From: an uncultured Planctomycetia bacterium
Lineage (GTDB): Bacteria > Omnitrophota > Gorgyraeia > Velamenicoccales > JABMQK01
Assembly (NCBI GenBank): GCA_964520705.1
Contig: CAZFPS010000005.1
Span: 1 to 41,169, forward strand
Reading direction: 5' to 3'
DNA length: 41,169 nucleotides
In this document: positions 3,185-41,169 of the stretch, in pieces
Layout: each line of letters starts with the position of its first letter
How positions within the stretch are numbered: position 1 is the first letter of the stretch
Position numbers and translations under genes: made by a program
Notes under the pieces: generated by a model
The model's input: only the letters and a program-made list of their open reading frames with translations
Database searches by the model: none
Told to the model about the DNA's origin: nothing

Positions 3185-3236
3185 GAATCATACATACGTT
3201 ATACTAAAGACTAAAAAAGAAAGGGGGTGAAGGTAG

Positions 3237-3434: not shown

Positions 3435-3473
3435 CTAATGATTATTCTTTATTCTTAAAGGGGGTGACCAGAG

Positions 3474-3812: not shown

Positions 3813-3852
3813 TTAAAATTTTTGTAGTCTAATTAATAAGGGGGTGAAACAA

Positions 3853-4167: not shown

Positions 4168-4240
4168 AAAGAAGCAAATACCTCTGCCCAATTTTATTTA
4201 TTAGTAAGTAATACATAGCTGGGTAGAGTTGGCAAGAGGA

Positions 4241-4600: not shown

Positions 4601-4602
4601 TT

Positions 4603-4959: not shown

Positions 4960-4960
4960 A

Positions 4961-9766: not shown

Positions 9767-10654
9767 ATGGATATAATTGCACAATTAGTTCTGTTTTTTG
9801 CGATAGTGGTCTTCGTGGCCAATGTCTTAGTCATGATGCTGTCCTCTTATGAATTAAGGACAGCGATTCAGAGAAGATTAAAATTAGATTCTTTTGGCAA
9901 GGAGAAGAAGAGGAATTTGCTCACTACCATCTTAGATCTATTTGTCCCGGTAAATTACATGCTGGTCAATAAATTTTTTAAGAGACACAAGATGGAAGAA
10001 AGGCTGTTTGCCGGCAGGATATCTTTTATGCCGGAGCAATTCTTGGCTATAAAAGAGTTATTGGCATTTGCGTTTTTGGTCTTGACATTTTTATTTGTTC
10101 AGACAGGAGACATTCTGCCGCTTATAATACTGCCGGTGGTAGGATTTGTTGCGCCGGATATATGGTTGATCACGAAGATAAAACAGAGAAAAACAAAGAT
10201 TGTCAGGACTCTTGCAGACGTGGTGGATTTATTGTCTTTATGCGTAGACGCAGGGCTTGATTTTATAGCCGCTTCCAGATGGATCGTAGATAAGTCCATC
10301 CCTAATGCGTTTACCGAAGAGCTCAGCCTGGTATTGCACGAGATAAAAGTGGGCAAGTCCAGAAGAGACGCGCTGCAGGCTATGGCTAAGCGCCTTAATC
10401 TTCCCGATGTCACAGCTTTCTGCCGCACGCTCATTCAGGCTGATAGGATGGGTATTCCTATAGCCGAGGCCTTAAGCGTCTTATCAGATGACGTTCGCGA
10501 CAGATTCTTTAGGCGCACAGAGAGAATAGCTCTGCAGGCACCGATGAAGATGCTCATACCTTTGATACTTTTTATTCTTCCGGTTGTAGGCATAATCGTT
10601 GGCGGGCCGGTTTTATTGCAGTTTATGTCCGGAGGCTTTGTAGGATTAAAATAA
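9767..10654 (+). CDS. tadC: Tad pilus inner-membrane platform protein TadC (T2SSF family)
   Basis: 'DVVDLLSLCVDAGLDF', 'GKSRRDAL', 'LIQADRMGIPI', 'APMKMLIPLILFILP'. Confidence 0.92.
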   Translation: MDIIAQLVLFFAIVVFVANVLVMMLSSYELRTAIQRRLKLDSFGKEKKRNLLTTILDLFVPVNYMLVNKFFKRHKMEERLFAGRISFMPEQFLAIKELLAFAFLVLTFLFVQTGDILPLIILPVVGFVAPDIWLITKIKQRKTKIVRTLADVVDLLSLCVDAGLDFIAASRWIVDKSIPNAFTEELSLVLHEIKVGKSRRDALQAMAKRLNLPDVTAFCRTLIQADRMGIPIAEALSVLSDDVRDRFFRRTERIALQAPMKMLIPLILFILPVVGIIVGGPVLLQFMSGGFVGLK

Positions 10655-10803: not shown

Positions 10804-11334
10804 AATGATTAGTCAAGCACGCACAAAAACTAAGAATGATTACAATGATTGATAAAAAAGATTACAGTGATAGGGCAATGAGAAAGGATCCTCTTACAGA
10901 AAAGATAATTTCTTGCTGTTTCAGGGTTCATAAAGAATTAGGCCCTGGATTTAATGAGCGAATATATCAGAACGCTCTAGAGATTTTATTTGAACAAGAG
11001 TCATTAGGATTTAAGACTGAAAGAATGTTTAATGTATTTTTCCAGGGTCAAAAAGTAGGCAGGTTAAAGTTAGATTTATTAGTAGAGGATCAAGTTATAG
11101 TTGAACTTAAGGCAGTAACAGGAATTGTTCCTAAATTATTCGAGTCACAGTTAATATCATATTTAAAGGTTACAGGCTTAGAAGTAGGATTGTTAATCAA
11201 TTTTGGCAATCGTAAGTGCAGCATTAGGCGTTTAATGTTATCTAGCTTTGGACATTCTGAAAATAATCACCGTAATCAGAAATTAAATCAATGTAATCAA
11301 AAATATAATGATTAGTCAAGCACGCACAAAAACT
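10804..11334 (+). mobile_element. putative inserted GxxExxY cassette bounded by 28-bp direct repeats and 12-bp inverted repeats
   Basis: AATGATTAGTCAAGCACGCACAAAAACT is identical at 10804-10831 and 11307-11334. Inside, GATTACAATGAT (10838) and GATTACAGTGAT (10860) face ATCACCGTAATC (11266) and ATCAATGTAATC (11287). Confidence 0.65.
10836..11315 (+). CDS. GxxExxY protein (PD-(D/E)xK nuclease-like)
   Basis: 'VHKELGPGFNERIYQNAL', 'LDLLVEDQVIVELKAV', 'QLISYLK...GLLINFG'. The true start may be ATG 10878. Confidence 0.93.
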   Translation: MITMIDKKDYSDRAMRKDPLTEKIISCCFRVHKELGPGFNERIYQNALEILFEQESLGFKTERMFNVFFQGQKVGRLKLDLLVEDQVIVELKAVTGIVPKLFESQLISYLKVTGLEVGLLINFGNRKCSIRRLMLSSFGHSENNHRNQKLNQCNQKYND

Positions 11335-14300
11335 GGTGGATTCAAGACTTGGATGAGAGTAGTGGCTCTGACCGTGCTGGTAATCTTTACCCCACAGCAG
11401 ATCGCCTGGGCTATTGATTATGATTGGCGCACAATTTGGAGAGCATCCCAGATGCAGTCCTCTGCCGCAAGCTCACCGGCTATGACTATACCTTATGCTG
11501 CTTTAAAGTCAGCGGGCTTTGAGAAACAGCTGGCCTTTAATATAAAGGAGTCTTTGAATTCTCTACGCAGTTCAAACGCGCAGAGCGTGCTATTTTCCAA
11601 TGATGTAGTGGTTGAGCGTACCAACCGAGCAGCAATCACAGAAGACAGCATAGATAGCATATATAAGCAGTTGGTGGATTCAAACAATGATATCATTACC
11701 TGCGGCGCCTACTCCTTATTTAATATGATGCTGGCTTATGGCCTGACCTCTATCAGCGATAAGCAAAAAACCGAAAAAGAAAATTCGCCTTCAATCTTAG
11801 ATATCGCCAATACAATAATTCTTATCGACTTACTTAGCGATCCGGATCTGCTGCCTACCTTTAGAGAAAATCAATTAGAAGTCTCCTTCTACAGTTTAAT
11901 AAAAGCCGCGGAAGCTTACGGGATGAAGCTGGTGCCATTTCATTTGGAGACTTATAAAAAAGATTTAGAAAGTATTAATAAACTAGTTTCCTTCCCATTC
12001 ATCGCTACAATCGATGAGCCGCACACTGTATTAGTAAAACAGATCGATAAGAACGGTGTGTTAGTTATTGATAATGATGTAGAGAGATTAATCGCGCTGG
12101 AAGAATTTAAAGATCGTTTTATGGGTTATTGTTTGGCGATCGAGGTGGCAAAAGATCCCAGCATAAAAGTAATCAGCCCCTATGATGCCAGATCCATAAA
12201 GATAAACAGGAGATCGCGTCAATATAAGATTACTACTTTTAATGATTTATTCCCTGAGCCAAATTGGCAAGATCAGTTTCTCTCTCTGGCCGCTAATCTT
12301 TTGTCGGCTGGGCTGGGCGGAAAAGGTCATAGCAGGAATGTGGCTAATCAAATATTTGCCTCTAAGATATCGCAATTAGCTACGAATGTCGCCGTAAATA
12401 ATTGGGGCTGGAAGCCTAAAAATGCTCAAATTTTTGGATCTGCTGTAGGGGGCGGCATAGCCGGTTTTAATTCTCCAGGGTCTACTTTCTTAAAGGGTGC
12501 TGCGCAAGGAGCAGCGCAGGGATATGCTACTACGGTGGCTTATAAGTGGCTCAAGAATACAGCATTTTATAAGAACAATCCTGAAATCGGTATGCAAGCG
12601 GTCGGTATGATCGGCAGTACCATGAGTACTTTAGGGCTTTCTATTTTCACTAAACAAGGAATGCCTGGGGCCATAGAAGCTAATAAATTCGCTATGGCTA
12701 AAGGCTTTGCTGGAGGTGTCTTTGATTTAGGTATACAGTACAGCGCGTCTCAGGGGTGGCTTGGTAAGGCATTTGAAAAGAATCCTACTTTCTCTCGCGT
12801 TTTAGGCCAATCAGCAAGCGGTTGGTTTAGTAGAAATGACGGATTGAGTACCAGTAAGTTTTTAGGGAAACAGGCTTTGTCTGCAGGCGTATCTTTGGGT
12901 TTAGATGCCCTGGGAGGCGAATACGATAAGAAGACGAATAAGAACCGCTGGGGCATGACTCCCACGCAGATGGCTGCTGTGACATATGGCGGGACAGCTT
13001 TCTTAGAAGCCGGGCTGGCCAGAAGTTTTAATATATTTGATTTTAAGAAGGATGGAATGTGGGATTTGATGAAAAATAATTTCATCAATAACGTTGCTCT
13101 AAATATGAATCCTGGACAGTATGGCATGGTCAAAACCGGAAGAAAAATACTGAATAAAGACACAGGAGAGTTTGTTGATGAACAAGCCTTTGATCTTTAC
13201 GCAGGCTCTATGCATCTCTCCAGGCTGGGTGAATTTAGCGGCGTAGGATATTTTGAGGGCCAAGTTGATTTAGCTGTAGAAGATGGTGGTTACGCTTCTT
13301 GGAAGGAGTTAAAACAGGATCGTGGTTCAATAAATCTCCTGCCCTCGCTCAGTGCTTCTATGGTAAGACAGACAGCGTCGGTCTTGCACACCGCGGCAAC
13401 AAACACAGCAGTGAATATTATAGATAGAAAGCTTATAAAACCATTTATAGCCCATGCGAATTGGCAAAAGAAACAACATAGAGGCCCTATGGCTCTTGTA
13501 GGGGGGGCAGAGCAAGAATTTGCAGATGTCGGCCTAGTTCCAACAGAGATAGACATTTCGCAAAAAGATATTGAAGATATTTACAATGGTAAAATCAACT
13601 CTGTCACATTGCGCAGCAAAGATGCTCCGAATGAGATTCTGGGTGTTTATAAAATAGATCGAGAAACTGAAGAAATCACTATAATAAACTTTGCCAATGA
13701 TAATGCAAGCACTACATTTAAATTGAAAAAAGGCCAGACGCCGATTATGCTTCTTGCGGATGCAGTAGCGGGCAATCTACCTCACATAGAATTAACTGCT
13801 TTATCTGAAAATGCCTATCTGCAGAAAGCCGAGTACTCCAGAGGAATTGGGGGATGGATTTTAGATAAGCTAGGATTATGGGATCCCGCGTTTGAGCCTG
13901 ACACTATCATAGGGCAGAGGCTCAGAGAAGATAAGAAGCACTGGTTTGACCCTATTTTAATGACAGCAGTTCTAAAGCATAATGAGCATCAATTACAGCT
14001 TGATCTCTTGAGCGGTATGAAGGGCACGCAGAAGCTGACCGCCTGGGAAGTCTATAATCTCAAAGTAGAACAAAAAGGTTTACCTATTGGCCTGGTTTCA
14101 TTTGTTGCTGCTAAAGGTTATGAGTCTGGAATATTCGTAAGTATAGGTAAGAATAAGATACAGGTACCAGTTGCTTCACTTTCTGGCACGTGGGTAGATA
14201 AAGGCAAACCCCAGGCGCTATTTTTATTTAACGCAGATTTAAGGGCAAAATTTGAAGAAGAAGGAAATTCTCTTTTCCATAGCAACCTTCCGGGTCAGGC

Positions 14301-38300: not shown

Positions 38301-41169
38301 TGCGCTTAAAGAAATTTTAAATTCTAAAACACATCGAGCTCAGAGTTTTGTCAATTTTATGACTTTTCTAAAGAGTGCCATAAATACAAGAATAGATATG
38401 ATTGAGCATTACCAGGCACCATTATCAGCGACAGGAGAAAATAACATACTTTCAATTAAGCATCTTATAAGTCGCTCTGAGGATATAGATAGTCTTTTTG
38501 ATACGTTCAAAGATCTTATGAATCCCTCAGATACTTGGTTTATTCCTTTATTTGATGAGGAAAGAAAGAAGATCATTTCGTCAAGGGGTATTTTAGCTAC
38601 TAGGACTATAGGTACTTGGGGTTGTTCTACTCAATGTGACCACTGTGATGACGCAAGCCTCATCCAAGTCACACCTTCTCCATCGAAATGGCTAAAGGAA
38701 AGCAAGGAGTATATGTTTAAACTAGACGAATTCCACAACGGCTCCTTTATAGATTATTATTGTTTTGTCTATGATAAATATGGTAGTTATGTGGCGTTGT
38801 TATTTGATAGAAATAGTATAATAACTTCTCCATTTGAGATAGGTTCTGTACCAGATAGGAGTTTAAAGAACTTATTAGAAATGGGTAAATTAGATTATTT
38901 TGTGTTAAGTGTTGCTCCTAGCGCTTTGATGCGTAGAATTGGAATTGAGAGATATTATGAATGTATATATCACATTATAGAATTACTTAAGAAAAATAAA
39001 ATTTCCTATAAATGTTTCTTACATATGTTTAGGCGTCAAAAGGATCCTTTAGATATTAACAAAATCCCAGAGAAGGCTAAATCGCTATTAAAAAATGATT
39101 ATATTGAAAGAGACTTATTTAGATGTGGTAGACTTTGGCAGTTAATAGAAAAAGGTTCAATAGATTCGACTTCGATAGGTAATCTCATTAATAGTTGTTC
39201 TACATTTTTTACTCATAAAGATGTTGGTAGTTCTTTTCTGCTTCCTGATGGTCAAATTGTCTACGGAGAAAACTATAGACAGGGTATTTTATGTCGTATA
39301 TATAGAACTGTCCCGGGGCTCGAATCTATAGGCAGAAGGTCTATTAAGTGTTGGTATTGTAAATTGGATTGTAAAGGAAAATCAGAAATTGGATGCCCAG
39401 GGCGACAACAGGTATTTAAGCCATGGAATTTGTCTGCTGATGGCGGATTTCTTGAAGATAAAAACAGTTCACCATTGAGCCTGACACAATTGGATGAGTC
39501 CTTAGCAACCTTCGTACCGATAAGTGAGTTAATAATAGGAGATAGAGAGACTATAAGACAAACCAGTTCCCCACTTACCGTCTCGCCCGCCACAAATCTT
39601 GGCGGGACTTCGTCGTCGCTCGGCAAAGCTTCCTTTGCTTCGCTCAGGACACTTCGAAGGACACTGAGCGCAGTCGAAGTGCGCTCCTCCTCGCCTGCGG
39701 CTCGGGGAAATTCTGATGCAACTCTAAGGGGTATCCTCGGTGATTTTTCCGTCGGAAAAACTGGCTCGTTACGTAACATGTTACGTAACAACCTGGAAGG
39801 TAATGCTATCGAATTCAGCTCCAGCCCGGTTGAAGGATCAAATGAGGTGCCTGCCAAATTTGAATTCCAAGCAAAAATAGGGAATCAGATGACTTTAGGG
39901 GTAGTAATAATAATACTTAGAGAAATTACGAGAGCAGCAAAAGAGGATAATCTAATAGAGGTTATAAGACAATTATATAGACTAAGAACACCTCTTACAA
40001 CGACAAACTGGTTAAAGATACCAGAAGAAATAGAAAGGGCAAAACAGATAATAATTAGCCACCATATTAGAAGTTTAGATGATTTGATAAAATATACCGA
40101 AGCTGATGTGTTAGGCTTATCTGAAGCTGTTAAGATATTTCTAAGAATATATAAAAAGTTGTTAGAGAATCGTATTAATATTACCTTAGACCGCATTGCT
40201 GAAGGCACAGCTTTTAAGCGCAATAAAATGGGCGATGTGTGGAAATATGAACTGCGGCCTATTTTAGAAGCCTCAAAGCACAATTGGCAAGATGAAACAA
40301 TACTGGTCGACGATAGTAGGCATATTAACAAAATTGAAAAGGATGAATTAGCTGCTTTAGAAGATATGGAGGATGTAATACGTGATGATATCGATAAAGG
40401 CAATGTACTTATTTATGATGAACTTGTGGAATTGGTTAGAGGATTGCCAACTCCACCATACGGTAAGCAACTACCAAAAGACAAAATAATAACCTTATTA
40501 GAAAAGATTGGGCTCAGCAGAGCACAATTCAATAGAATAATAAAGAAGAGAGAGAAAGACAAAAGTAAGGTACTAATTATCGAAGAAAAAGAGGAGGAGA
40601 TTCCCGATCTTGAGGTAATTATAGGGATGAGCGAACCGGGGAAAATTGAATATATATATAAAGTTTTGGGAGATATCCGTAAAGGTGCAATAGAGGGAGC
40701 ACAACAAGGAACCATAAGCAATCTCAGGTCCCTAACACTTAAATGTGTAAAAGAGGCAATAAATAGAAATTTATTTAAACTATTAATTGGCAGAAGTAAT
40801 TTACCAGCCAGTGCATCAAAAGAAGATATCAAGAAAGCCTATCTAGAAGGAAAGAGAACCCGTGATAGCCAAATACTTAAAGGAGTTGAAGATATGCAAC
40901 AAAAGAAAATTAGGGCAGCTAAGTTACGCCGCCAAAGAGAAATTGCCTTCCAGATTTTAATGAATGATGAGTTGAGAGTTGTGTATTTAGGAATGAGACC
41001 AACTCATATTGATATCTTTGAATCCGCTAAAGCAATTACTGCATCTAAAACTACTAGTAAGAAACGCAGTGGTAAAGGTTCCTCACCAATAAAACAAACC
41101 AGCTCCTCACCTACCGTGGCAGGCCCCGTTAGAAATATTGTTAATAAATTTAAGAGATTTAATTTGATT
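11308..41169 (+). CDS. giant secreted/membrane multidomain protein, at least 9,954 aa, 3'-truncated by the window edge
   Basis: ATG 11308 in frame +1 begins MISQARTKTGGFKTWMRVVALTVLVIFTPQQIAWA|IDY (Sec signal, AxA site). Every segment I translated is open, through to ...KRFNLI at 41169. The ORF track shows no closed frame +1 ORF here, as expected if there is no stop. Confidence 0.93.
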   Translation, partial: MISQARTKTGGFKTWMRVVALTVLVIFTPQQIAWAIDYDWRTIWRASQMQSSAASSPAMTIPYAALKSAGFEKQLAFNIKESLNSLRSSNAQSVLFSNDVVVERTNRAAITEDSIDSIYKQLVDSNNDIITCGAYSLFNMMLAYGLTSISDKQKTEKENSPSILDIANTIILIDLLSDPDLLPTFRENQLEVSFYSLIKAAEAYGMKLVPFHLETYKKDLESINKLVSFPFIATIDEPHTVLVKQIDKNGVLVIDNDVERLIALEEFKDRFMGYCLAIEVAKDPSIKVISPYDARSIKINRRSRQYKITTFNDLFPEPNWQDQFLSLAANLLSAGLGGKGHSRNVANQIFASKISQLATNVAVNNWGWKPKNAQIFGSAVGGGIAGFNSPGSTFLKGAAQGAAQGYATTVAYKWLKNTAFYKNNPEIGMQAVGMIGSTMSTLGLSIFTKQGMPGAIEANKFAMAKGFAGGVFDLGIQYSASQGWLGKAFEKNPTFSRVLGQSASGWFSRNDGLSTSKFLGKQALSAGVSLGLDALGGEYDKKTNKNRWGMTPTQMAAVTYGGTAFLEAGLARSFNIFDFKKDGMWDLMKNNFINNVALNMNPGQYGMVKTGRKILNKDTGEFVDEQAFDLYAGSMHLSRLGEFSGVGYFEGQVDLAVEDGGYASWKELKQDRGSINLLPSLSASMVRQTASVLHTAATNTAVNIIDRKLIKPFIAHANWQKKQHRGPMALVGGAEQEFADVGLVPTEIDISQKDIEDIYNGKINSVTLRSKDAPNEILGVYKIDRETEEITIINFANDNASTTFKLKKGQTPIMLLADAVAGNLPHIELTALSENAYLQKAEYSRGIGGWILDKLGLWDPAFEPDTIIGQRLREDKKHWFDPILMTAVLKHNEHQLQLDLLSGMKGTQKLTAWEVYNLKVEQKGLPIGLVSFVAAKGYESGIFVSIGKNKIQVPVASLSGTWVDKGKPQALFLFNADLRAKFEEEGNSLFHSNLPGQARETYGSISRVTGKDDAGREIELGWQIDKGSLVAFNLSTTSSSTFRNKGTTDPLIEKEWIEALKSSPSESTPLEDQFGYEETVNDVNRVFFSGFTVLGESGGIDAGRQRTFMSAGVDGFQGERTSVIEWQQYGSWNVSGSWDRLSGWDYVMDFSYKDKGAEHTGPQIWEGRKTTTQKREEGFIKGTAAFRPLYQPLQANIVPVAYNQQVDRGLGYLWDTTVDIYNKQTYGLSNTDIFMAENYFGGFQIQNEDRKKMLSSGQMIGYLKDQGATDSVAEAFEDVISFAGDGESGDRSRHTFNMMYQDNSGTYSQNPLSVVEDKSGDGKWTGTLYLLNLDLNRNGDSLNAQIMRSSVGKDGTIIQQIDIFDMKEGERQNQFSLSADSQKRQDIVTEGDGLHAVIITPGEESMPINAAEIEALTGSFEQADGKVVETGLLINENFSTSLTGWAIKSDRENVGGWDNTNKVGFDFGDGIKEKDIIEQAETITDETPVNHLLVNVGKDGGTKALIEAWGIDIDDKKNLQNEGVPRRGRFVLKESGDHQVAIVDNLPTITQHSDYRFDNTGAPDPLTGWWAFDTSEEDGSTANLQFGESMFPDNINERIGVEYAIIKSINSEGNYADAITSIMHFDRANPLTWQTPKTTLEDGTILTLPSGWRVQGADTVGEVQQLIDDGKIKLTTAKDAPNLGGVINRLHAFEKINGQWQPYMEGHGEISLGVVTDADNVERSPFGDRKYALELQADIKGEVLHPGLYVSVDPTKRAEAMEAASVAMSRTDPQTGETQIYNSADDVDPSAPTSFSLEGSSWDGSNTQIQVLGLSESGNHRVSGDISYLLSGYNFTPYENIGTGSKIEIAKGMPITTVSPGMQTINPATGTHSISQYVVTNFETAEDTQIEFGDLALKKDGTIDRVNTTTGGISVGANTTGVLFDDVSLTTPSVFGDARVINTMYDKEGGFLGRDVAEINFGDKDNSVALTTLDPKYDVKFYRYRDQENQAEIQGDYSGIVVENLQEGQTSAFAGSATTVGAKRLDSLKGGIEEVAVQWTGAIIGERNPQVLTPSIFGTDSSGTSSRQEAFSDGVVILGKLFDEKYTVDEQDATFEGNPLTFHVTAGDWDEVSSGDLSMLAPTGESWSVEQKSLFNNYVINTGLADLSGYKQPAQDIFDAEFQEADRVSVTPLIRTRQDGSGASVLEGNIPKQSYIVRSKEGSPRLGMESTVFLTDKTLFRFRSIDNTIDRTIGLDLLQPAIDENIAPVFQGLANLSFGAKSKYLKAFNHLRLFSKNMYSSKVAKVCAMALSEQLRSTPEFSDALGRALADLPLATLEIDGAEVAKQSIIDAFEKFMSNPSSRNPDAFAESVFIALNSNIPEVVQINYEEIENNGEVNNVAYQMLEGSLGKLNHVPLSNSRYLDDKHWDDEQQAFIVPVEWLAKDKDSGLGYRLIPENEAFPSFSFNPLSGGKGGEAGTGITLSEKFNQDVPYFSIYTSSERINPLATFEVFQKTGTWQFNTSGGFLSVAGQPIRDIAAKEGVKEITFDNKGRAKFDVGLIQTLVFNEPSAVVSTDTQEGLGLVYKKGSQWESKQISEDAIGFVPLVGGKPLGANDSISSHIGVSSLYNNSDLAGTFRESVTGPGPVIMPEKVSYWAGQGFVLSFDMADGENARNFAFLSNSPQPSNVEQKGKIADFHPVVGNENLSRSNLDRLPYSVVVTDAKVTDKTVKLSGTLPDSPAAHKRIEGDVLRDAFIVTPFDNTALPAGFIADTALSMNAGYTLPSSITNAQLQEVSQERVLGSNNGEGSIDIGRGTSIYQGNLYFKDGGYSIGQGAQGVIKQESKVKGQSTTSILFDVDFSLLGNGTQPINVDFAYHQSASSRIKPNDLWKFTETQQDINNIGRIYTYLINFDESSPGVFGVAKWNEITEKRIVKRKNDMGIYYLEEFGTGTYAPLRELFIDLDNDFNFYGEVVSIEQAGSKWESKDQRDKIEFNNLRPNVTPEAFYQNSEDPNLIGFSFSEDSGRSLIYQDQSGNDVNFDLNRYGSFAGSTMLEGQGPFIGDFTTYRPQGEEGSLWEGAKNIASSAWSLLKGGSGDGSVPEATAYTDKATGWTHYQGKLNLDVQAPFSTTSSVSVNFQNAVFNIPEGKELVGFSTNDYGEAQMSTYSSKTKDGRIIFDSAGEIDERIDVGLRNDQILYDWSLIGGGRMYKPGSERYRPGFDPESTGPRELSISAGPSWWENTLENVTNYAVLALLVINPVVSTLAMPDASKQAIQGVKNDWTLAVYKAEERRRFTSEIGIGTTHALSEFIVTPEGRMVLLMPLAALGETAIAANYLARLTTISQAIGRAITFGKVASPTLQALVGASAVTGTTAVVGGLGFNAATDKGLTEDLVSYAVKGTLLPVAAYAAYTRIGAQLFLAGSEIYKLATTGEHLTLGEMEAISIASLIPAGRIGKYTSSAFQGTRTGMAIQWLTRPASLASSTWGKIGYAAGSSATLATIGTLGTEGFTRAYSGKGLTWKQRGTIFSTLFFGNVARLSVAGLTQWGAKGIESGLGLGNQGAIIQLGSNTGKLGVVRSGLLRVARPVLGGLNCGASLGFVGGGVGLMTHRWEEDQVEIIEGFVVPQDPSLWKTFGSTLSVFGKSAKIPALFGTGIGFVGGLGLGNVLKPTSGWSYAIWPALALTGRGVYDGGRYALGNRELSRLEAKPDKTPQDVARINELRNKVYFEGKNYVDIATLAVGLRFLKGSNLINPATSTLSNLWRHAKLMGFGAGLNVGKDLAMGYANKWFDISFGESIEIKDANGAPVYLKPGLTFGQQYSEGSFFASALRGAVWAEIGSYAVNNASTVLGRASGKYGALRPQPIEGSPLLRHKLPLSGADRLGIEGLIGAVKWTYIGPAFSVFGGAWKSSMYALASGGELPNGTLFNIDSAIDFNNDGKIQDNESVLIPLKSREGMRNLLGSIRESPISGVVLHPMIGIASRNPVTASSGIGRAMEKTQSMFGTNRITSEAGNLFRIAGFVSAMDVALEMGSTISGPGESTGYNDLGTRYTRLNRQNLATGIYGTERSAASWGLLFNLPTFTGPRATGLVDNQGRPLDSEGNAIPQKTSLYDHTGREIDSNGNPIPVPGKPVKLVGATGQPIVKGRQVKHSKASEFYEKVYGSSVLPSDSHADFAEKMVRMSEILSSYEGPTLRILEQGDTGVGKDSVTAAYQNFATGKRSVLMVPTNANAKNAAAEAKNAFAQLGLHGKSVEIIELGKEGSFAKLSTNPDVVILTDINAKSFASFLRDRNSLLSRFGREIFEDSNVIIPEWIYSPDLQTPSGNTGGLSQIKSSIEGRSMRRQVNREAKIYKELKLWEHIEFEIPIDGETIYNPHLSETGINKYVERHKADNLTALKSQKGGEEKVAAIQSLVQAHAYAIEAGSKNVVPIRGKTIRLVERYGYQYDVVLHDRIKAHAESMMGAKLAREAGRKDFGKLDPLHKYSAGRFDRISTGDVFDVAERFGARSIQAWSAGIDKIEARELQSIHGFQRINDRGLPERYSLTEGRIPFDSQRNFRFSEKSLDQEINGMVQLAIRDKQGPLVLEENMPGHSWDDILMSTVRAARKSGADVLVLEYSGEMKEIKTSRLNVDRAMRTAKKVELWGNKQKDTIGALDRVANGEKVVLLMARGHLRGTNVKLGARGTQRILNDLKSTETLTAQGKDRVRGLYEEIDKGKFDVNFEKPFTNVDLNAEAGKRGMEIVVFGAPRDMTFKRYSEAMKVNDVTFAKEGRYQTRMEYTLNMAHRFNRDILNRVDSKAARKLIEDADWELRKTNEIWLHLDLKGELGRAPDRLQETLNRSIDSLRKIYNKDGRLYKSLSEELRNFVDTELQPRISTAIEWGREVKGAKRLDAMTTPEEARIALGHHTRIEDLPKHTPRTMEGQVVRSGVKGVREVLQIIESSTIESGRDLMNIAPAVGYQTFLDIEFQDDDPNNKQRVQWLANSQNNATQGGVFTHDLAFVYTYAGLKEIARSPSQVTAYNTAIGQSSFLSQDEKEALILPIGEKISDAQAFDIAVKLSETKMVDLANYDRRGLDSIVTVGNALRGLWAASDISGRTDSKPLDRENFNYLRDNYGITQTGAHRVALGLIDKDQNSTAHSILAKSLEDRVSALRLVERFHDSKMLRPLVPLVNKLYSTKLYGGKVSDLIDLSDALVSGSELDTSILSLPGELANIYMPSRLDFNYSYNDLVELGVTKFNKIKVADLAKLGSKNITKKQLSKWGVSSREIKKVAKEIGKIAKSKKQLTFEALDKFVEDKRIDQRNLNTLAFGLGAGTHPEIQLNLIKLRGFINKTDLGRSFTSDKLKRIDLTHTTAFGLADGVYNYSTSLKAKPKKKDIDAVHIDTAITQGIAGHTSIPMTNMNKFAKLYTYKERETLDMGDLQDLFFKLTDKILPVENHDIIIQSGNLLEDVSFDLQQLTLRLNININKTLSHQLAIGREAIRLGLENNNIELRSQKAIETAKTIIGENHNLLHVWNSVKPKRALYDIPQKLLDVKDKIELQANEEIEGNVDDLIDATLSTLKQLSPELDIPADFKIDRDRLRAFVLSYKVKLMMPEEMRHAGPAESISDKNSNTIALDIRNIDEQGLGLKPFTRSLILGHEPIHVILQGVANQLEENIGKDQEDQLDKIRKLKIGQLENEPIVYLLNLRTMGKIFGNRSKEVTAPAVKQLIRKVVPGSKGRLRDLPKSNKELYAKLKGLEQRHGLGVAANLEEYALIDLPDLGQADNGLTPPRGTTPPIGPSSGGGFGNDGPSISDYTPAPPIDLLSPPSPDRPLGGKSSPLSMPKMGKVDIKSIGIGLALAVISMLPSFGGDLQAQQLPEIPEIGSSYQQVGALELDALPSLQSLSFGPLSSAGYQSYLPTSFMSMSGIDNQKWLVKLVQDMEKLKAELREVEMEKAQAKMDQIREDIKKTRIEFAKIAKEISSLKIDPPATISSLETSMSSPMAQQQLPQPKPIAVSSPLVPLALETSSELALARSDSPLARPGKPRFSRFAKFLGVLGIAIVANLWGWGAGAGAADNSAAEARKLLAMQAQAPKPALGILERKALDYLEDINFTHIISNALANASPEERYDIVFRLADGLTRANNYYAVKIARKFASMPSDDPLKSVGVVALEDMTIPNARVALEGILNSHPRGKGKALAMIIEPEPDDPAMENFVNLEVKPLRLAGYETVVDTIRGDTIIGPFGIIDAVASIGDNGEMWNSLLISSHGNSKFIYFPVSKMHLTVDDFNFMESFGLDRYVDPNALLINSSCYSLDTTIVDNFGRGMGHLLGVEEVQGAVDRIEARLTFSNNRWGVKLSSIYGEVASYHPVDSTLIVRPYENEKAPRSFLIDNAQLNEIIYYVIDDLRGYEKFIRQQPPGEQTERFEIFNKRLALSYTLSAEYLLGVDTSSVDIGRFYAKSLQLFPELEDSLTDSEIRLAEQAGHTKPIDFSKYIDIGIGSGLLILVALGGIVSAYNNIGWGGLAYYRRREGDGQQAEVKNVANKRSASSPMSVTTETRKINRSTGGLNDLTLNLSFDNNGAPQLVLEQEGNSSPVAVAEIDSYNPQTRTLRFRDIQSSSPLATQALVTKVLDQGIAVKVEIGAPISSPTVVSNIDAINRELRNLILNSSELKAVSSPIFVGRSPITGEAVHRLDISRNDISKISSSPLAEQLKQLPSSSPIAVDSIRVPQSNIVSLRSAVKQIVERGDDFTEGGFLLFGRQDGENYSISGIVPIKRYSDQRYEGFVPDRESMVKQIIEHAVADIKLIGVLHLQPFDMTKLLQKPGPSWEDRIGDDFLLPELNDKIAKVPLGIVIEPTVPRDIPVSQIAKFVPKNFSTYFYLPVSKTTREIKIIGDPVDFEHWVSQARFASSPIKQIEPLALPVLTADPISSPIQAGRIDIPTGVEAQLTAQIFSSPVRAPPLDADNLRVSALDSREFALTSSPLKAQIKTALPSTSSPLIEGFRPSRTLKELEAENFRQLGQEFIKEVIIGFYVDKMTLIFSDAVLADRFSGDIDSIAQKAKDLVGALLDIRDKQVFAREEWSRYKPVISILTTLSLGDPADIDIINKGFSPIVEYLALLASDSSPKQNIIVEGFSRLRHILNKFNDWLSNQKSIELGHYLGDEEREIIAIDRQDLVEFEYPPVVSSPLLEPAVLGRNDINNIGKAGVGGFGIGGAVTIGGGAGVGGGMSSPMGSGTSGFGRSGAGIGEMGSNLSGANKLLKLEIKPIEIIPEISQQSSPIGETFIDFKGRFDRASAPSSPVKSNRDRADQKPILPSQVPGTMPFMPLPMSTPIQVPAQNASSPVIDLAVPALSASPSSLFGPSAQVPIGELVMSERVKAQQTSVGYARGPTVSSPLASFSARNWQKDKRTPLQPVFTAIALSLITSDLKRSYDGKGPLNRKPDSWMPTVYTYKALVSALNSAALNIGNGLKAEATAVAGWVKVALRQIKAQIATETAEAGTIAAMPIAAISSPAIAGYSRIANIGTMAPIKDSAYFANLEDNSKTLNSSPLTELGRNFENIVISKIPGAQSVTWKFAFSRPISDLTSALVTQEYNEGLFASSPTIDLTNEPTNKLTNYNRRGVFVSAGTNFHESYTNPHKYSLKFSSSPLSLKANIANLYNNKVKLKFVYNLAAQNFRNSLKDDKDFLKDILGYAWKMTIISAIGISIMVAVTIRHGPKETNCMLNSRNENIEVVINVDFGGRLRSDSYANERAQSIFNRIIETNKLPPTYKLFVVNEGRDAYAKFGNIILPLWMLQIFDDEMVSWIISHEIAHFTLESSNNKNADKLGFEYAKTAGYLKEIKSPKKFRRTVEKESREFLKIRPTGRLCGSSCGSSPVNNLTNYISASKFASLSASSPATSLLPDSPVLADARSFETFLYTEPMRQALGNIIQILDIESVESAFVTHVTAAPGMTEPYFVKSERKTQSECPLVPFEVEHETVSIHSHPFIPVGVESSDGSISQKVEVAILPGCEDFDVFIRQNGRGVLGIIWGNRNVGFYLTAIITNRIPDYITLISHHEKDVRKAIDVLKQNQAIAFYRLNFGVETLSPYFIEEGVIVEPERIAAQDAIAVTERLVANPDLVIEDDIRVLAGFSRLAQEQFRNREFSEISDAASTIEAYLMKIGDSLKKKIFSADGVREQIAREQIAMAWEMNRLSAILRGLKRALSEKGVSVFPASATASLTSEELFQSIWLSSSPVASLLSASSPLLRSGRQPQEEYNLDNLAGASSPVEKSKYDKERDAAITKIARLVIALRPQGGNFYKAVKESMMSQGKSGREAWSFANYVFTDKGELKIDPYKYVPRSSEFDGTILEGKDPEFEGTILGYTDSSYPASSPSLRSGRRPQEENNPDNLAGASSPMKENALPIDAGADTRVNNKNGKVSGLASPVKLDTRYIMHDAGMTGSSPMVLDLIRLGRAQNISPNPFMAAGSSPLQETEPGRQSTNSRKFHTNTHEYSFESTFFASARNPSRNPEQGEGPISSPITIINNNLDRFSSPLTKAKNVLLGSIRGLFVRLTQVISFRAIRNFILSILLTISVGMSFIYFPKGIISIVYPPKDNLTVLISSEYKEGYVLDYFFFNTYGAVYFGLKGIELDIIYAATKNDLRTVSGDSTKPNIAVMGHGTWNEWIASDSVVTEDDIKRWYSSGEFPRKESIIRYTCGSGRFLFDEQFGHHAVEDPQTQIRGFDFTVSPIEFLVKPTAFSQKELDSEKGNWLLNAMRALRGVEDPITTTDYMRADKEVEDTIYGRMMGNPRMLRKFRLPLYIVGEEEDHRNINGSTSLQTILIYDQAYSDSSSSPLTETNLTKTTQSSPVTYRGRLSEEIVANSGVNVSRITPSSPLVLGKFLNFDNSSSPTVAGLVRNIVNKFKRFNLIISTVAGIGEHTNPAGFVRITPSSSPLDENFDNSSSPTVAGIGEHTNPAEAVVGNTPAISSPLDGVRISSPLNSNEYLEDMTKRIINECRQDNYSSLKLSWEMAVYDYQEFIKHAAAINAALKEILNSKTHRAQSFVNFMTFLKSAINTRIDMIEHYQAPLSATGENNILSIKHLISRSEDIDSLFDTFKDLMNPSDTWFIPLFDEERKKIISSRGILATRTIGTWGCSTQCDHCDDASLIQVTPSPSKWLKESKEYMFKLDEFHNGSFIDYYCFVYDKYGSYVALLFDRNSIITSPFEIGSVPDRSLKNLLEMGKLDYFVLSVAPSALMRRIGIERYYECIYHIIELLKKNKISYKCFLHMFRRQKDPLDINKIPEKAKSLLKNDYIERDLFRCGRLWQLIEKGSIDSTSIGNLINSCSTFFTHKDVGSSFLLPDGQIVYGENYRQGILCRIYRTVPGLESIGRRSIKCWYCKLDCKGKSEIGCPGRQQVFKPWNLSADGGFLEDKNSSPLSLTQLDESLATFVPISELIIGDRETIRQTSSPLTVSPATNLGGTSSSLGKASFASLRTLRRTLSAVEVRSSSPAARGNSDATLRGILGDFSVGKTGSLRNMLRNNLEGNAIEFSSSPVEGSNEVPAKFEFQAKIGNQMTLGVVIIILREITRAAKEDNLIEVIRQLYRLRTPLTTTNWLKIPEEIERAKQIIISHHIRSLDDLIKYTEADVLGLSEAVKIFLRIYKKLLENRINITLDRIAEGTAFKRNKMGDVWKYELRPILEASKHNWQDETILVDDSRHINKIEKDELAALEDMEDVIRDDIDKGNVLIYDELVELVRGLPTPPYGKQLPKDKIITLLEKIGLSRAQFNRIIKKREKDKSKVLIIEEKEEEIPDLEVIIGMSEPGKIEYIYKVLGDIRKGAIEGAQQGTISNLRSLTLKCVKEAINRNLFKLLIGRSNLPASASKEDIKKAYLEGKRTRDSQILKGVEDMQQKKIRAAKLRRQREIAFQILMNDELRVVYLGMRPTHIDIFESAKAITASKTTSKKRSGKGSSPIKQTSSSPTVAGPVRNIVNKFKRFNLI
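11680..12140 (+). other. peptidase C39-like domain of the giant protein
   Basis: 'TCGAYSL' (Cys 11701), 'SFYSLIKAAEAYG', 'PFIATIDEPHTVLV' (His 12022), 'VLVIDN' (Asp 12070), 'EEFKDRFMGYCL'. Confidence 0.8.
20990..23490 (+). other. Gly/Ala-rich multi-helix hydrophobic (membrane) region of the giant protein
   Basis: Successive segments such as 'YAVLALLVINPVVSTLAM', 'ALVGASAVTGTTAVVGGLGF', 'GASLGFVGGGVGLM' and 'LFGTGIGFVGGLGLG'. Confidence 0.65.
23760..25620 (+). other. degenerate SecA-like (SF2 DEAD motor) domain of the giant protein
   Basis: Walker A-like GDTGVGKD (23845-23868), then collinear SecA landmarks: ATGKRSVLMV..AFAQLGL, FASFLRD, VIIPE..QTP, EARELQSIHG, RGTNVKLG, GMEIVVFG. Confidence 0.7.
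27960..28330 (+). other. zincin-like HExxH metallopeptidase motif region
   Basis: 'IALDI...SLILGHEPIHVIL' (HEPIH 28168-28182), with downstream 'ENE' as a possible third ligand. Confidence 0.5.
29780..30250 (+). other. caspase-hemoglobinase fold (clan CD) peptidase-like module 1
   Basis: 'LLISSHGN' (His 30001) and 'LLINSSCYS' (Cys 30130), each after a hydrophobic strand and 43 aa apart. Confidence 0.6.
31375..31900 (+). other. JAB/MPN-like module 1
   Basis: 'TEGGFLLFG', 'LIGVLHLQP', 'PSWED', 'LGIVI'; the second His of HxH is replaced by Gln. Confidence 0.65.
34400..34730 (+). other. M48 (HtpX/Ste24-like) metallopeptidase module
   Basis: 'DAYAKFGNIILPLWML..FDDEMVSWIISHEIAH...NADKLGFEYAKTAGY' (HEIAH 34630-34644). 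Confidence 0.75.
34950..35340 (+). other. JAB/MPN-like module 2
   Basis: 'VESAFV', 'VSIHSHP' (35155-35166), 'LPGCED', 'VLGIIWG'. Confidence 0.55.
35933..36401 (+). repeat. 82-bp direct repeat pair flanking a roughly 100-codon insert
   Basis: 35933-36014 versus 36320-36401, 4 mismatches; each copy begins and ends with GCCTCCAGCCC (ASSP). Confidence 0.9.
37000..37430 (+). other. caspase-hemoglobinase fold (clan CD) peptidase-like module 2
   Basis: 'NIAVMGHGT' (His 37189) and 'SIIRYTCGSG' (Cys 37303), 38 aa apart, preceded by a TM helix. Confidence 0.55.
38560..39420 (+). other. radical SAM-like module with SPASM/twitch-like Cys tail
   Basis: CxxxCxxC 'GCSTQCDHC' (38623-38646); later 'NSC...LLPDGQI' and 'CWYCKLDC...GCP'. 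Confidence 0.7.
40780..40992 (+). other. J-domain-like module lacking HPD
   Basis: 'LPASASKEDIKKAY' and 'AFQILMNDELRVVY' match DnaJ helices II and III-IV; there is no HPD between them. Confidence 0.55.

Follow-up and report, generated by a model that had tools for sequence, protein, structure and literature searches.

The window analysed here is a stretch of 41,169 nucleotides that makes up the whole of one contig (C5). All of the features described below lie on the plus strand (+), and the opposite strand contains no ORF of more than 194 amino acids. The first gene (151..504) encodes a DUF192 protein (Pfam E 2.8e-20) and is followed by a 524 amino acid protein without a Pfam family (660..2234) that is kept in 6/6 of the relatives examined. 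An array of small pilin-like genes comes next (2454..4959), in which five short ORFs match class III signal peptide, Flp or TadF-like families at E 0.0013-0.028; all of these fall under Pfam cut-offs and the array itself is kept in 6/6 relatives. Beyond it lie a 417 amino acid protein that has no Pfam family and is conserved in relatives (4871..6124), and a conserved 772 amino acid TadG-like protein (6320..8638) with a weakly TadE/G-like N-terminus and a Pfam Tad match of E 7.8e-4, below the cut-off. Two T2SS-F platform proteins then follow, one TadB-like (8873..9757; Pfam T2SSF E 4.5e-19, 59-73% identity to relatives) and one TadC-like (9767..10654; E 3.7e-15, 54-81% identity to relatives). 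The remainder of the window is occupied mainly by a giant ORF, which begins at 11308 and runs to the contig end.

Gene order is identical in 6/6 relatives, across two families, and in each of these the giant gene is the last gene of the cluster, directly after the two T2SS-F genes. In the complete relative G007 the syntenic locus is closely preceded by genes for RcpC, a secretin and a TadZ-TadA ATPase, and the same DUF192 gene comes after them, from which it is predicted that our window starts inside a Tad locus; since the contig begins at DUF192, the TadA ATPase, secretin and RcpC fall outside the window and are known from their position in G007 only. A linkage of the giant frame to Tad genes had been suggested in an earlier reading made from the sequence alone (hereafter the sequence-only reading), and the association proves to be tighter than was stated there. 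A single gene interrupts the arrangement in this genome. It encodes a PDDEXK_3 nuclease-family protein (10836..11315; Pfam E 7.3e-36), it has no tblastn match in 6/6 relatives, and the insertion is specific to this genome. Direct repeats at 10805-10831 and 11308-11334 flank this inserted PD-(D/E)XK gene, the upstream one (10805..10831) being an orphan copy of the first 27 nt of the giant gene.

The giant ORF (11308..41169) is a single frame of 9,954 codons that is open at its 3' end, so that the gene has at least this length. It is open because the contig stops inside a 70-nt internal repeat (41100..41169, a 99% copy of 37875-37944), and it is this assembly break, not biology, that ends the frame. 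The last 31 nt of the window were found in no other contig of the assembly. Continuity was checked by placing Logan contigs from four groundwater metagenomes, generated in three studies, on positions 21170-41169, and over this interval they showed no substitutions, indels or joints. Coverage was 30/30 bins for X1 and 25/30 for X2, with some bins bare in X2-X4; the pieces are all shorter than 2 kb, so that long-range continuity is not proven by them. One Logan record each in X1 and X2 extends beyond 41169. Logan contigs were also seen to diverge at 38023-40229, and these may be repeats or strain variants. The open frame of at least 9,954 codons that had been proposed for this locus is thus borne out, and the misassembly or in-frame stops that had been named as grounds for its rejection were not seen in the Logan pieces over 21170-41169. 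Giant genes make up approximately 15% of this small genome.

At its N-terminus the giant protein carries a signal peptide (11308..11415), recognised by inspection from a basic n-region, a hydrophobic core at aa 18-36 and the sequence AWA followed by I/V-DY. This AWA, I/V and DY arrangement is conserved in 7/7 proteins, and the signal peptide looks cleavable. A Peptidase C39 domain lies shortly downstream (11590..12162; Pfam E 1.4e-7, 31.8 bits against a cut-off of 22). Its Cys (in TCGA), His (in H.VLVK) and Asp-Asn are invariant in 7/7 proteins. The region as a single sequence matched nothing in the PDB at E<=1; a profile of seven C39 sequences gave as its best match the double-glycine protease 6mpz, weakly (E 0.018). 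The Cys, His and Asp segments align to the matching segments of 6mpz, the Cys segment at a sub-threshold level, and the residues aligned there are presumably the catalytic residues of that enzyme. The C39 cysteine peptidase is apparently active.

Behind the peptidase is a Gly-rich amphipathic segment (12295..13167) that is conserved across the order, with tblastn matches to query aa 454-699 in many relatives. Gly content is 11% over aa 251-750. A large conserved block, which we call the chassis, extends over aa 1280-3520 (15145..21867) and shows 52% identity to a same-genus homologue; an AlphaFold2 model of aa 1280-2279 from 3 sequences was unusable (pLDDT 27.4). The first strict transmembrane (TM) helix after the signal peptide was placed by a hydropathy scan at aa 3227-3245 (20986..21042), and by this crude method there are 6 such helices in the 9,954 amino acids. 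From its composition, the region of aa ~3250-4000 is hydrophobic and Gly-rich, with the one strict TM helix at 3227-3245. Of the calls that the sequence-only reading made over this part of the protein, the signal peptide and the C39 domain are present as described, the 'Gly-zipper' segment is Gly-rich by composition, and the hydrophobic region can be recognised, by composition only. The stretch of about 2,400 amino acids that it took for beta-rich stays a putative call.

The N-terminal 700 amino acids were matched in 26/40 relatives, and the relatives so matched are Candidatus Omnitrophota bacteria. Where a listed match lies on a long contig it opens a huge frame, the longest having 39,687 codons, and identity to the heads of giant frames in same-order genomes is 27-33%. 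Comparison with the same-genus homologue G001 divides the protein in two, with 84% of aa 1-3520 aligning at 50-52% identity as against 8% of aa 3521-9954. The first of these parts is collinear between the two proteins and two later blocks keep their order. The tail of the G001 protein contains methyltransferase, M24 and receiver domains, none of which is found in the present ORF. A layout of conserved chassis followed by variable tail, as had been proposed, therefore holds on the alignments, with a boundary near aa 3,520 (~21.9 kb in the window) in place of the 28.5 kb (aa 5,700) originally given. A boundary at this place puts both the presumed SecA-like stretch and the first of two HExxH motifs into the variable part. 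Among the giant frames within this genome paralogy is almost nil, being limited to a 126 amino acid block shared with C1 (two HSPs) and a 285 amino acid block shared with C4. The sharp transition from a conserved head of 3,500 amino acids to a tail that cannot be aligned even within a genus, together with the strict operon linkage to a Tad pilus, marks out machinery from a fast-evolving payload.

These comparisons also bear on whether the long frame could be an artefact, produced by chimeric assembly or left by a pseudogene in decay without a single expressed product. With 134 contigs the assembly is fragmented and of metagenome type, the contig ends in a repeat, Logan contigs branch off at 38023-40229 as noted above, and other giant frames of the same genome (C8, C7 and C1) are broken by a single stop or frame change, all of which might be taken to favour such an origin. 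Chance, however, should not be able to produce 9,954 stop-free codons at 40% G+C, contigs from independent studies carry neither indels nor substitutions, and there is collinearity with the same-genus homologue over aa 1-3520 and a shared order of the two later blocks. Homologous frames of 12,652 to 39,687 codons occur elsewhere, one of them in a single-contig genome, and the Ser-Ser-Pro (SSP) sites described below show purifying selection. An artefact is in our view extremely improbable.

A SecA-like domain had been assigned by the sequence-only reading to the region that follows the hydrophobic stretch. This region contains a stretch resembling a P-loop and SF2-helicase motifs I-Ia (23797..24132), with GxGK at aa 4180, that matches Pfam DEAD at E 0.007, below the cut-off, and the region around the P-loop matches RecG at E 0.009-0.024, also sub-threshold. 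It is conceivable that aa ~4150-5060 are a true SecA motor, diverged in the extreme, through which the giant protein brings about its own export; such a role has been proposed for other giants of the Omnitrophota. The GxGK P-loop with its motif Ia-like sequence and these sub-threshold matches would be in agreement with such a motor, and stretches after the P-loop resemble SecA motifs by eye. In an AlphaFold2 model of aa 4100-5060 (6 sequences), unusable as a whole (pLDDT 39.4), the surroundings of the P-loop reach pLDDT 55-75 and show an alpha/beta pattern. It has also been reported that most giants carry divergent SecA_DEAD and SecA preprotein-binding domains (West-Roberts 2023).

The assignment nevertheless fails every profile test. 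When the whole genome was scanned with Pfam SecA_DEAD (PF07517) at E<=10, the genome's own SecA on C20 (8e-129) and the C1 giant (3.4e-52) were recovered but contig C5 gave no match, nor did PF07517 find anything in the C39-headed giants of five relatives. SecA_DEAD was likewise absent from Pfam searches of the ORF halves and sub-pieces, and SecA from PDB searches by sequence and by profile. BLASTP of the region against the two true SecA_DEAD regions that this genome possesses reached a best E of 0.82, and Foldseek on the low-confidence model of aa 4100-5060 returned no match at E<=0.001. At the putative Walker B position the sequence reads P-E and not D-E, by inspection and without a reliable alignment. 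An exhaustive HMMER search with aa 4260-5459 found 6 relatives among 1.84 billion representatives (best 2.7e-29); the sequence from aa 4260 onward, a query that lies downstream of the P-loop, had no match in 40 related genomes, and aa 4260-5760 had no homologues at E<=0.001 among proteins of 5,474-17,420 amino acids. We regard a SecA motor as unlikely at this position.

The modular tail (28705..41169) contains 51 SSP sites, gathered in linker clusters between 11 modules of 106-532 amino acids. The crude hydropathy scan places TM helices in the tail at aa 5811, 6460, 7661 and 8531. The sequence-only reading had seen an HExxH motif followed by a train of unrelated enzyme modules. Two such motifs are present. 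The first (aa 5621; 28168..28182) has no family match, and the block around it is weakly conserved in G005 and G006. The second is an HEIAH at aa 7775, within the core of an M48/DUF5700-type zinc peptidase (34453..34653; Pfam M48 E 1.5e-4, DUF5700 E 7.7e-5); here the M48 match reaches 22.1 bits against a cut-off of 20.3 and covers the N-terminal 78 of 186 profile positions only. A module with a CxxxCxxC motif at aa 9106 (38155..39465) has no Pfam match at E<=1 but shows 24% identity to one of the modules in the giant frame on C4, and among its atlas neighbours, which score 0.94-0.96, are clusters where 18-92% of the members have Radical_SAM, which provides a radical-SAM/SPASM-like lead. An orphan module with a His...Cys pattern at aa 6040-6459 (29425..30684) has no Pfam match and no homologues at E<=0.001 among proteins of 231-735 amino acids; it gives a weak lead to C80-type cysteine peptidases at scores of 0.86-0.90. 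The train of modules is therefore real in that 11 linker-separated modules can be delimited, whereas only M48 among them is supported by a family, one has a radical-SAM lead and the rest are orphans. With functional leads in only 2 of approximately 11 tail modules, the term 'enzymes' is largely extrapolated from homologues and the literature.

The 3' part of the gene may be represented elsewhere in the assembly. One continuous ORF of the homologue G002 joins the tail blocks of the window to the frame on C7, and on this collinearity with one homologue only the C7 fragment is probably the 3' part of the same gene. The C7 frame contains a Peptidase_M23 domain (E 7e-22) and a weak GH2 match. Further fragments rich in SSP are present on C2, C17, C35 and C8.

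The sequence-only reading drew an analogy with MARTX and large clostridial toxins, and the layout found here, in which peptidase modules (C39 and M48) lie inside the chain and a variable modular tail comes after a conserved N-terminal part, is in agreement with it. A polyprotein of that kind would possess an N-terminal translocation device, an internal autoprotease and C-terminal effectors that are injected into a host, and the linker motifs could then be cleavage sites. The C80 lead for aa 6040-6459 points in the same direction, with a language-model score of 0.86 and PF11713 in 13% of the members of the rank-26 cluster. That score, however, lies under the 0.9 line of the tool and belongs to one orphan module for which no homologues were found, and neither Pfam nor NCBIfam scans of the ORF report a family of RTX repeats, of toxin translocation regions or of C80. 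TM helices of their own stand in front of several tail modules, which fits membrane anchoring over release, and the domains found in homologues and on the 3' fragment (M23, GH2, methyltransferase, receiver) are of surface-acting or housekeeping type. The function read into such proteins in the published accounts is cell-wall degradation at the surface (West-Roberts 2023; Seymour 2023). Nothing favours delivery into a host cell over display on the bacterium's own surface, and we consider a toxin-like polyprotein improbable.

The most conspicuous feature of the tail is the SSP motif itself. Ser-Ser-Pro occurs 54 times in the giant ORF against 3.5 expected, in 50/54 cases as SSP[LIVMTA], and its general form is a small or aliphatic residue, Ser-Ser-Pro, then an aliphatic residue, Ala or Thr. 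This is approximately 45-fold above the genome background, in which only 2 ordinary ORFs have 2 or more copies; one of them, with 2 SSP[LIVMTA], is the 524 amino acid Tad-locus protein (660..2234). SSP is the top enriched tripeptide in 6/7 giants and is enriched in the long same-order homologues (G001, G002, G005-G008 and G013), with no such enrichment in two distant class-level relatives. A cause at the DNA level was rejected, as the 54 sites use 34 codon combinations and 7/54 lie in detectable DNA repeats. The sequence context of SSP is linker-like (disorder-promoting residues z 3.6, aromatic residues plus Cys z -3.8). Of the spacings between sites, 38/50 are of 60 amino acids or fewer and 11 are gaps of 106-532 amino acids, and the linkers between modules carry 2-8 SSP copies each. 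Within blocks of just 24-48% identity 13/23 SSP sites align exactly to SSP. The ends of homology blocks fall within 7 amino acids of an SSP in 6/10 cases against 1.8 expected, a figure that is biased by conserved SSPs anchoring the alignments. The idea that the modules are fused pre-proteins, each with its own signal peptide after an SSP, was rejected by a permutation test, in which tail TM helices with an SSP 1-60 amino acids upstream numbered 22/121 against 21.5 by permutation (p about 0.5).

Neither the SSP linker motif nor the chassis/tail boundary is described in the main text of West-Roberts 2023 or of Nielsen and Lui 2026 (the supplements may contain them); in these main texts the word 'linker' does not occur and 'motif' occurs only in a reference title, and 'polyprotein' is absent from the main text of West-Roberts 2023. 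A literature search on Omnitrophota or archaeovorin polyproteins, cleavage sites and linker motifs gave only viral papers among the best matches listed. The SSP linker motif is a new observation made here, and it is a candidate for a processing or modification code.

We tentatively favour the view that an enzyme reads SSP as a signal for a junction, with proteolytic processing into separate modules, and rank this narrowly above a role in modification or as a hinge in an uncut chain. We know of no protease that prefers Ser-Ser-Pro, and C39 enzymes canonically cut after Gly-Gly. An uncut, membrane-anchored 'coat' chain is a real possibility ranked next to it, in which SSP would provide hinges, either passive or modified; these might be sites of O-glycosylation, or helix caps by which the linkers are held extended and protease-resistant. 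The linker-like context would be expected of such hinges, a Pro adjoining the scissile bond disfavours most proteases, and bacterial O-glycosylation sequons have a hydrophobic position that the L, V, I, M, T or A after SSP resembles. Archaeovorins are furthermore reported to be rich in glycosyltransferases (West-Roberts 2023), although no glycosyltransferase family was found by Pfam in the window's ORF. A passive hinge, moreover, needs no exact tripeptide, yet one is kept at more than half of the aligned sites. By the crude hydropathy topology, SSP sites are present in adjacent inter-TM segments; if each helix spans the membrane once, they would probably lie on both membrane faces, an arrangement that suits neither one periplasmic protease nor a glycosylation system well.

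Nucleotide repeats occur within the linkers, and because of this the linkers are likely to be joints for the gain and loss of modules. Taken further, SSP followed by an aliphatic residue might be a polyprotein junction code, by which a precursor is cut or modified into dozens of membrane and soluble proteins, while linkers with shared nucleotide repeats act as recombination joints that shuffle modules between strains. This fuller proposal is speculative and we rate it as unlikely; if true, the giant genes would be cassettes the size of an operon that process themselves, re-assort quickly and are tied to a pilus. The motif, specific to these proteins and confined to their linkers, has practical value in that it gives concrete sites to inspect in existing proteomic data, and rational cut points for dividing giant proteins into modules that can be expressed or submitted to structure prediction.

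The frame of at least 9,954 codons probably represents the 5' part of a gene that closes a Tad/Flp-pilus operon, and a member of the published class of Omnitrophota giant membrane proteins, with a signal peptide, a C39 domain and a conserved part of ~3,500 amino acids leading into a variable modular tail. After the Gly-rich, hydrophobic, membrane-associated stretch comes a hypervariable string of modules of 106-532 amino acids, some of which are separated by single TM helices. The N-terminal part would be exported and, with the Tad pilus, may form a contact apparatus on the cell surface. To this the tail would supply a fast-evolving set of enzymes, including cell-wall hydrolases such as the M23 domain on the probable 3' fragment. 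The SSP motifs in the linkers may be read by an enzyme as junction signals, and the nucleotide repeats may serve as the joints at which modules are gained and lost. The carriers of giant proteins of this published class are putative predators or episymbionts, and giant genes are thought to be the main tool of ultra-small Omnitrophota for attacking or living on other cells.

The general picture of this gene class has already been published, and the present frame is a further member of it. Omnitrophota are reported to have giant ORFs that encode a signal peptide and C39 and adjoin Tad/T2SS genes (West-Roberts 2023; Seymour 2023; Nielsen and Lui 2026), and in Velamenicoccia, which have Tad loci and giant ORFs, peptides of the giant protein were 3-fold up in attached cells (Seymour 2023). 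The Archaeovorin-type set comprises proteins of more than 30,000 amino acids, including the 39,678 amino acid protein of Velamenicoccus archaeovorus LiM, with glycosyltransferase, methyltransferase, glycosyl hydrolase, NUDIX and peptidase modules, as reported by West-Roberts 2023. Our frame resembles these in its Omnitrophota host, in the order of signal peptide then C39, in a long domain-poor N-terminal region, in scattered TM helices, in having peptidase and other putative enzyme modules, and in the adjoining pilus/T2SS genes. It differs in that no SecA_DEAD, glycosyltransferase, methyltransferase, NUDIX or HEAT is detectable by Pfam within its first 9,954 codons, the modules in the window being the peptidases C39 and M48 only, with M23 and a weak GH2 on the candidate 3' fragment C7. 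In size it has at least 9,954 codons, to the contig end, and homologues reach 39,687; its tail shares almost nothing even with the same-genus homologue.

With MARTX and the large clostridial toxins the likeness is conceptual only, in that a large part is conserved, one or more proteases lie inside the chain and variable modules are joined by unstructured linkers, whereas the giant ORF is without RTX repeats, Pfam C80, glucosyltransferase or translocation-region families and its modules have TM helices of their own. The C39 domain of bacteriocin/PCAT ABC exporters such as 6mpz is related to ours by a Pfam match above the cut-off and by the aligned Cys, His and Asp segments, but there it is the cytoplasmic N-terminus of a transporter whereas here a secretion signal precedes it and a giant protein begins with the two, and the recurrent motif of the giant chain is Ser-Ser-Pro and not Gly-Gly. 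The Tad/Flp pili of predatory Bdellovibrio-like organisms and of V. archaeovorus are matched here by two T2SS-F genes, a TadG-like gene and small pilin-like genes, and by RcpC, secretin and TadZ-TadA ATPase upstream in the syntenic G007 locus. The present locus differs from them in that its pilin-like genes lie below Pfam cut-offs and in that it has, as its conserved last gene in 6/6 relatives, the giant gene.

Under translation table 11 the frame 11308..41169 of the forward strand runs for 9,954 codons without a stop up to the window end, and the longest ORF on the opposite strand inside it reaches 194 aa. The single uninterrupted giant frame proposed in a sequence-only reading of this DNA is therefore upheld at the level of the reading frame. 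The window is one of 134 contigs of a 1.88 Mb assembly with a completeness of 88.8%, and the 70 nt at its end duplicate 37875-37944 with 99% identity; the frame is open at its 3' end because the assembler stopped in this internal repeat. Comparison of 21170-41169 with Logan contigs from four groundwater metagenome runs (X1-X4, three studies) revealed no substitutions, indels or joints, with coverage of 30/30 bins in X1, 25/30 in X2, 19 in X3 and 6 in X4; the listed pieces are all shorter than 2 kb and so confirm the letters but not the long-range order. One record each in X1 and X2 extends past the end of the compared stretch. The giant open frame is genuine. Single Logan contigs from X1 and X3 diverge at 38023, 39429, 39630, 39669, 39750 and 40229, with two of the places within 38023-40229 common to both runs and 38023 lying beside a linker repeat, and further branch points occur at 31176, 31208 and 33238 (X2, X3). 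The other divergences within 38023-40229 may represent strain variants with different module joins.

The proposed link between the giant gene and a Tad locus has been confirmed and can be made more precise. The window opens with a DUF192 gene (151-504), followed by a 524-aa protein with no Pfam family (660-2234), an array of small ORFs with class III signal, Flp and TadF matches that are all sub-threshold, a 417-aa protein, a TadG-like protein (E 7.8e-4, under the cut-off), a small pilin-like ORF, two T2SS-F genes (E 4.5e-19 and 3.7e-15), a PDDEXK_3 gene and finally the giant gene. When the regions upstream of the giants of six relatives (G001, G002 and G005-G008) were searched by tblastn this order was kept in 6/6, ending with the T2SS-F pair and then the giant, and the only genes missing from all six were the PDDEXK_3 gene and the 50-aa ORF that precedes it. 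In G007 the region just upstream of DUF192 encodes a SurA-like PPIase, RcpC/CpaB, a secretin and a CbiA+T2SSE (TadZ-TadA) fusion. A complete Tad cluster thus has the giant as its conserved last gene, and in the window this cluster is merely cut by the contig start. The opening 27 nt of the giant gene are found twice, as exact copies at 10805-10831 and 11308-11334 that bracket the PDDEXK_3 gene. This direct repeat is the footprint left by an insertion right at the beginning of the giant gene. The PDDEXK_3 gene (PD-(D/E)XK nuclease family; 10836-11315) seems to be a small mobile insertion placed exactly at the start-codon region, with an orphan start of 15 codons remaining upstream of it.

As had been predicted, the N-terminal part of the product has a signal for secretion and a C39 peptidase domain, whose active site looks intact. 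By inspection the signal has a basic n-region and its hydrophobic core spans aa 18-36; an AWA followed by I/V-DY is conserved in 7/7 proteins. The C39 domain scores 31.8 bits against a Pfam cut-off of 22, and in the same seven there is no variation at the Cys of 'TCGA', at the His of 'H.VLVK' or at the Asp-Asn behind it. The best PDB match of a seven-sequence C39 profile was 6mpz, a solved double-glycine protease domain (E 0.018), in which the His/Asp segment lines up with that of the enzyme, as does the Cys segment at sub-threshold level. The domain is probably active. Of the Gly-zipper helices suggested downstream, what stands is a Gly-rich composition (11% in aa 251-750) and conservation of this segment across the order. 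For the putative beta-rich region, an AlphaFold2 model of aa 1280-2279 built from three sequences had a pLDDT of 27.4. The proposed hydrophobic helical bundle is matched in composition by aa ~3250-4000 (Gly 12-16%, hydrophobic residues 40-43%), with only one strict TM helix (3227-3245). The presumed exported head is nearly devoid of Cys: of 26 such residues 3, including that of the C39 active site, lie in aa 1-3226 and 22 after aa 5800.

The protein consists of a conserved head and, behind it, a modular tail that is hypervariable. Against G001, a genome of the same genus, aa 1-699 align at 50% identity and aa 1280-3520 at 52%, but beyond aa 3520 the match is confined to aa 7246-7580 (37%) and aa 9549-9731 (28%), which lie in the same order with positions shifted by 1,800 and 3,800 residues. 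The alignment covers 84% of residues 1-3,520 and 8% of those that follow; by comparison, the neighbouring T2SS-F proteins are 73-81% identical. The tail of G001 carries a SAM-methyltransferase (E 4.6e-22), a Peptidase_M24 and a receiver domain, none of which is present in this window. Since the alignment mostly ends at aa 3520, the earlier expectation of a conserved chassis with a variable tail was right in kind but wrong in place, the boundary falling at ~21.9 kb of the window and not at 28.5 kb.

Among the tail modules, the predicted HExxH motif is present twice. The copy at aa 7775 lies inside matches to Peptidase_M48 (E 1.5e-4; 22.1 bits, with the cut-off at 20.3) and DUF5700 (E 7.7e-5); that at aa 5621 is without family support, and its surrounding block aligns weakly with G005 and G006 at similar positions. 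The module at aa 8950-9385 has no Pfam match but contains a CxxxCxxC at aa 9106 and has language-model neighbours at 0.94-0.96, including clusters with Radical_SAM in 18-92% of members. For aa 6040-6459 no homologues were found among proteins of 231-735 aa (E<=0.001) and there is a language-model lead at 0.86-0.90 only, with C80 in 13% of one cluster. The analogy with MARTX-like injection and toxins finds no family-level support. NCBIfam added nothing further for the giant ORF.

A SecA-like domain had also been proposed, and this was not borne out. A genome-wide Pfam search for SecA_DEAD at E<=10 recovered the ordinary SecA on contig C20 (8e-129) and a domain inside a giant frame on contig C1 (3.4e-52) but nothing in the window's contig, and in five relatives it picked up a SecA of ~950 aa alone and no C39-headed giant. 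There is a P-loop GxGK at aa 4180, and this with its downstream region gives sub-threshold matches to generic SF2 helicases, namely Pfam DEAD (E 0.007; 16.6 bits, with the cut-off at 26) and RecG (E 0.009-0.024). SecA was absent among the PDB matches of a six-sequence profile of the region, and a BLASTP comparison with the two true SecA_DEAD regions encoded in this genome reached E 0.82 at best. An AlphaFold2 model reached a pLDDT of 39.4, and Foldseek with this low-confidence model returned nothing at E<=0.001. For aa 4260-5459 six relatives were found among 1.84 billion representatives, and aa 4260-5059 had no match in 40 related genomes. To the eye, some stretches after the P-loop may resemble SecA motifs.

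The tail is marked by the tripeptide Ser-Ser-Pro (SSP), which occurs 54 times against 3.5 expected from composition, with 50/54 after aa 5800 and 50/54 followed by L, V, I, M, T or A. The sites are spelled by 34 codon combinations, which places the selection at the level of the protein. SSP[LIVMTA] reaches 5.0 per 1,000 aa compared with 0.11 in the genome's 100-1,199-aa frames, and only two ordinary frames carry two copies; one of these is the 524-aa protein of the Tad locus. Among over-represented tripeptides SSP ranks first in 6/7 giants and second in the remaining one. The counts, observed vs expected, are 61 vs 4.1 in G001, 32 vs 2.2 in G002 (same family), 93 vs 7.4 in G007, 25 vs 3.0 in G005, 38 vs 4.1 in G006, 22 vs 3.1 in G008 and 21 vs 2.6 in G013, with a weak 8 vs 2.1 in G011 (only 7,822 aa to count) and an uninformative 4 vs 1.3 in G025 (only 5,696 aa). 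Two distant class-level frames are not enriched (G031, 2 vs 1.0; G027, 2 vs 0.7). In the homologues of G001, G002 and G005-G008 the first SSP appears only beyond aa 2,355-5,494, which indicates that it marks the tail. In tail blocks that are 24-48% identical, 13/23 SSPs of the giant ORF align exactly to an SSP (5/7, 5/13, 3/3). The motif is thus a conserved, protein-level linker motif specific to these giants.

The flanks of SSP are richer in disorder-promoting residues (65.5% vs 60.1%, z 3.6) and poorer in aromatic residues and Cys (5.0% vs 8.4%, z -3.8). Of the spacings 38/50 are <=60 aa, and 11 gaps of 106-532 aa delimit modules. Ends of homology blocks fall within 7 aa of an SSP in 6/10 cases against 1.8 expected (p 0.004), a figure biased by conserved SSPs anchoring the alignments. 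All four of the longer DNA repeat families of the tail (D1-D4), including the contig-ending repeat, lie in SSP linkers. Local duplications in these linkers at 35933-36401 (82 nt, 95%) and 37863-38097 (36-47 nt, 94%) are recent and yield near-identical peptide stretches ahead of successive SSPs. A permutation test rejected the suggestion that, after an SSP, modules start with signal peptides of their own (22/121 tail TM helices with an SSP 1-60 aa upstream vs 21.5 expected). The SurA-like parvulin peptidyl-prolyl isomerase that opens the Tad cluster of G007 (locus L037, 1884-2852) is intriguing beside a giant protein with conserved Ser-Ser-Pro in its linkers.

In the mechanism that we propose the head would be exported and act with the pilus at the contact site, the tail would supply enzymes, including cell-wall hydrolases, and the SSP sites may be read by an enzyme. 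We tentatively favour proteolytic processing as the role of SSP. Modification, or a hinge in an uncut chain, is only slightly less likely, and other readings together are somewhat less probable again. The sites occupy adjacent inter-TM segments, which argues against a simple one-compartment process. The main text of West-Roberts et al. (2023) describes the cleavage points as not known, and neither that main text nor that of Nielsen and Lui (2026) mentions a linker or cleavage motif.

The assembly holds only one C39 head. In G002 one continuous frame contains blocks matching the window's tail (aa 5453-5936) and then a stretch of 2,800 aa (aa 10189-13008) that is 33-35% identical to a frame on the minus strand of contig C7 (3-20195 in reverse-complement coordinates, C7:16062-36254). 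This frame of 6,731 codons ends in a stop and encodes a Peptidase_M23 (E 6.8e-22) with weak PG_binding_1 and GH2 (GH2_C) signals, and by collinearity with this one homologue it is therefore a candidate for the 3' part of the giant gene. If so, the full product would exceed 16,000 aa, and more if SSP-rich whole-contig frames intervene. Stop-free frames of 1,581-16,934 codons occur on C1, C2, C4, C7, C8, C17, C35, C98 and C115 of the same assembly, those on C2, C17 and C35 being open from end to end of the contig, and taken together, with some 98,000 codons, they account for about 15% of the assembly of 1.88 Mb. On the minus strand of C8 three SSP-rich giant frames lie in a row, the first two (6,072 + 1,718 codons) split by a single in-frame stop and the next (3,888 codons) overlapping in another frame; for this arrangement tandem genes, recoding, a pseudogene and a sequencing error are all conceivable. 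SSP marks the frames of C2, C4, C8, C17 and C35 and one frame of C7 but not the SecA_DEAD-bearing frames of C1, so that this genome has giant genes of at least two kinds. The SecA_DEAD domain of C1 (minus strand, 53782-54909) lies within a frame of 13,693 codons in which SSP is not enriched (5 vs 1.3).

Giant genes of this type have been described in three papers and the present gene therefore belongs to an already known class. In Omnitrophota, giants with N-terminal signal peptides, C39 domains, many TM helices, divergent SecA_DEAD domains, enzyme modules and T2SS neighbours have been reported (West-Roberts et al., 2023), Tad loci and ORFs >20 kb that are 'poorly conserved' with 'few annotated domains' were found in 77/116 Velamenicoccia genomes (Seymour et al., 2023), and a C39 architecture cluster and Tad cassettes flanking giants have been presented (Nielsen and Lui, 2026). 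The reading of a Tad-linked Omnitrophota giant with a conserved head and a variable tail is thus right and already in print. New here are the strict operon linkage of the giant to the Tad cluster, the location of the boundary between head and tail, the footprint of an insertion where the gene begins and the SSP linker code, which makes the processing question directly testable. Matches to aa 1-700 were found in 26/40 related genomes, and in those listed with a long contig the match heads a huge frame: 14,691 codons in G001 (cut by the contig end), 13,008 in G002, 12,652 to 19,748 in G005, G006 and G008 of a sister family, and 39,687 stop-to-stop in the single-contig genome G007. This last is of the same size class as the ORF of 39,678 aa in Velamenicoccus archaeovorus LiM (quoted in Seymour et al., 2023).
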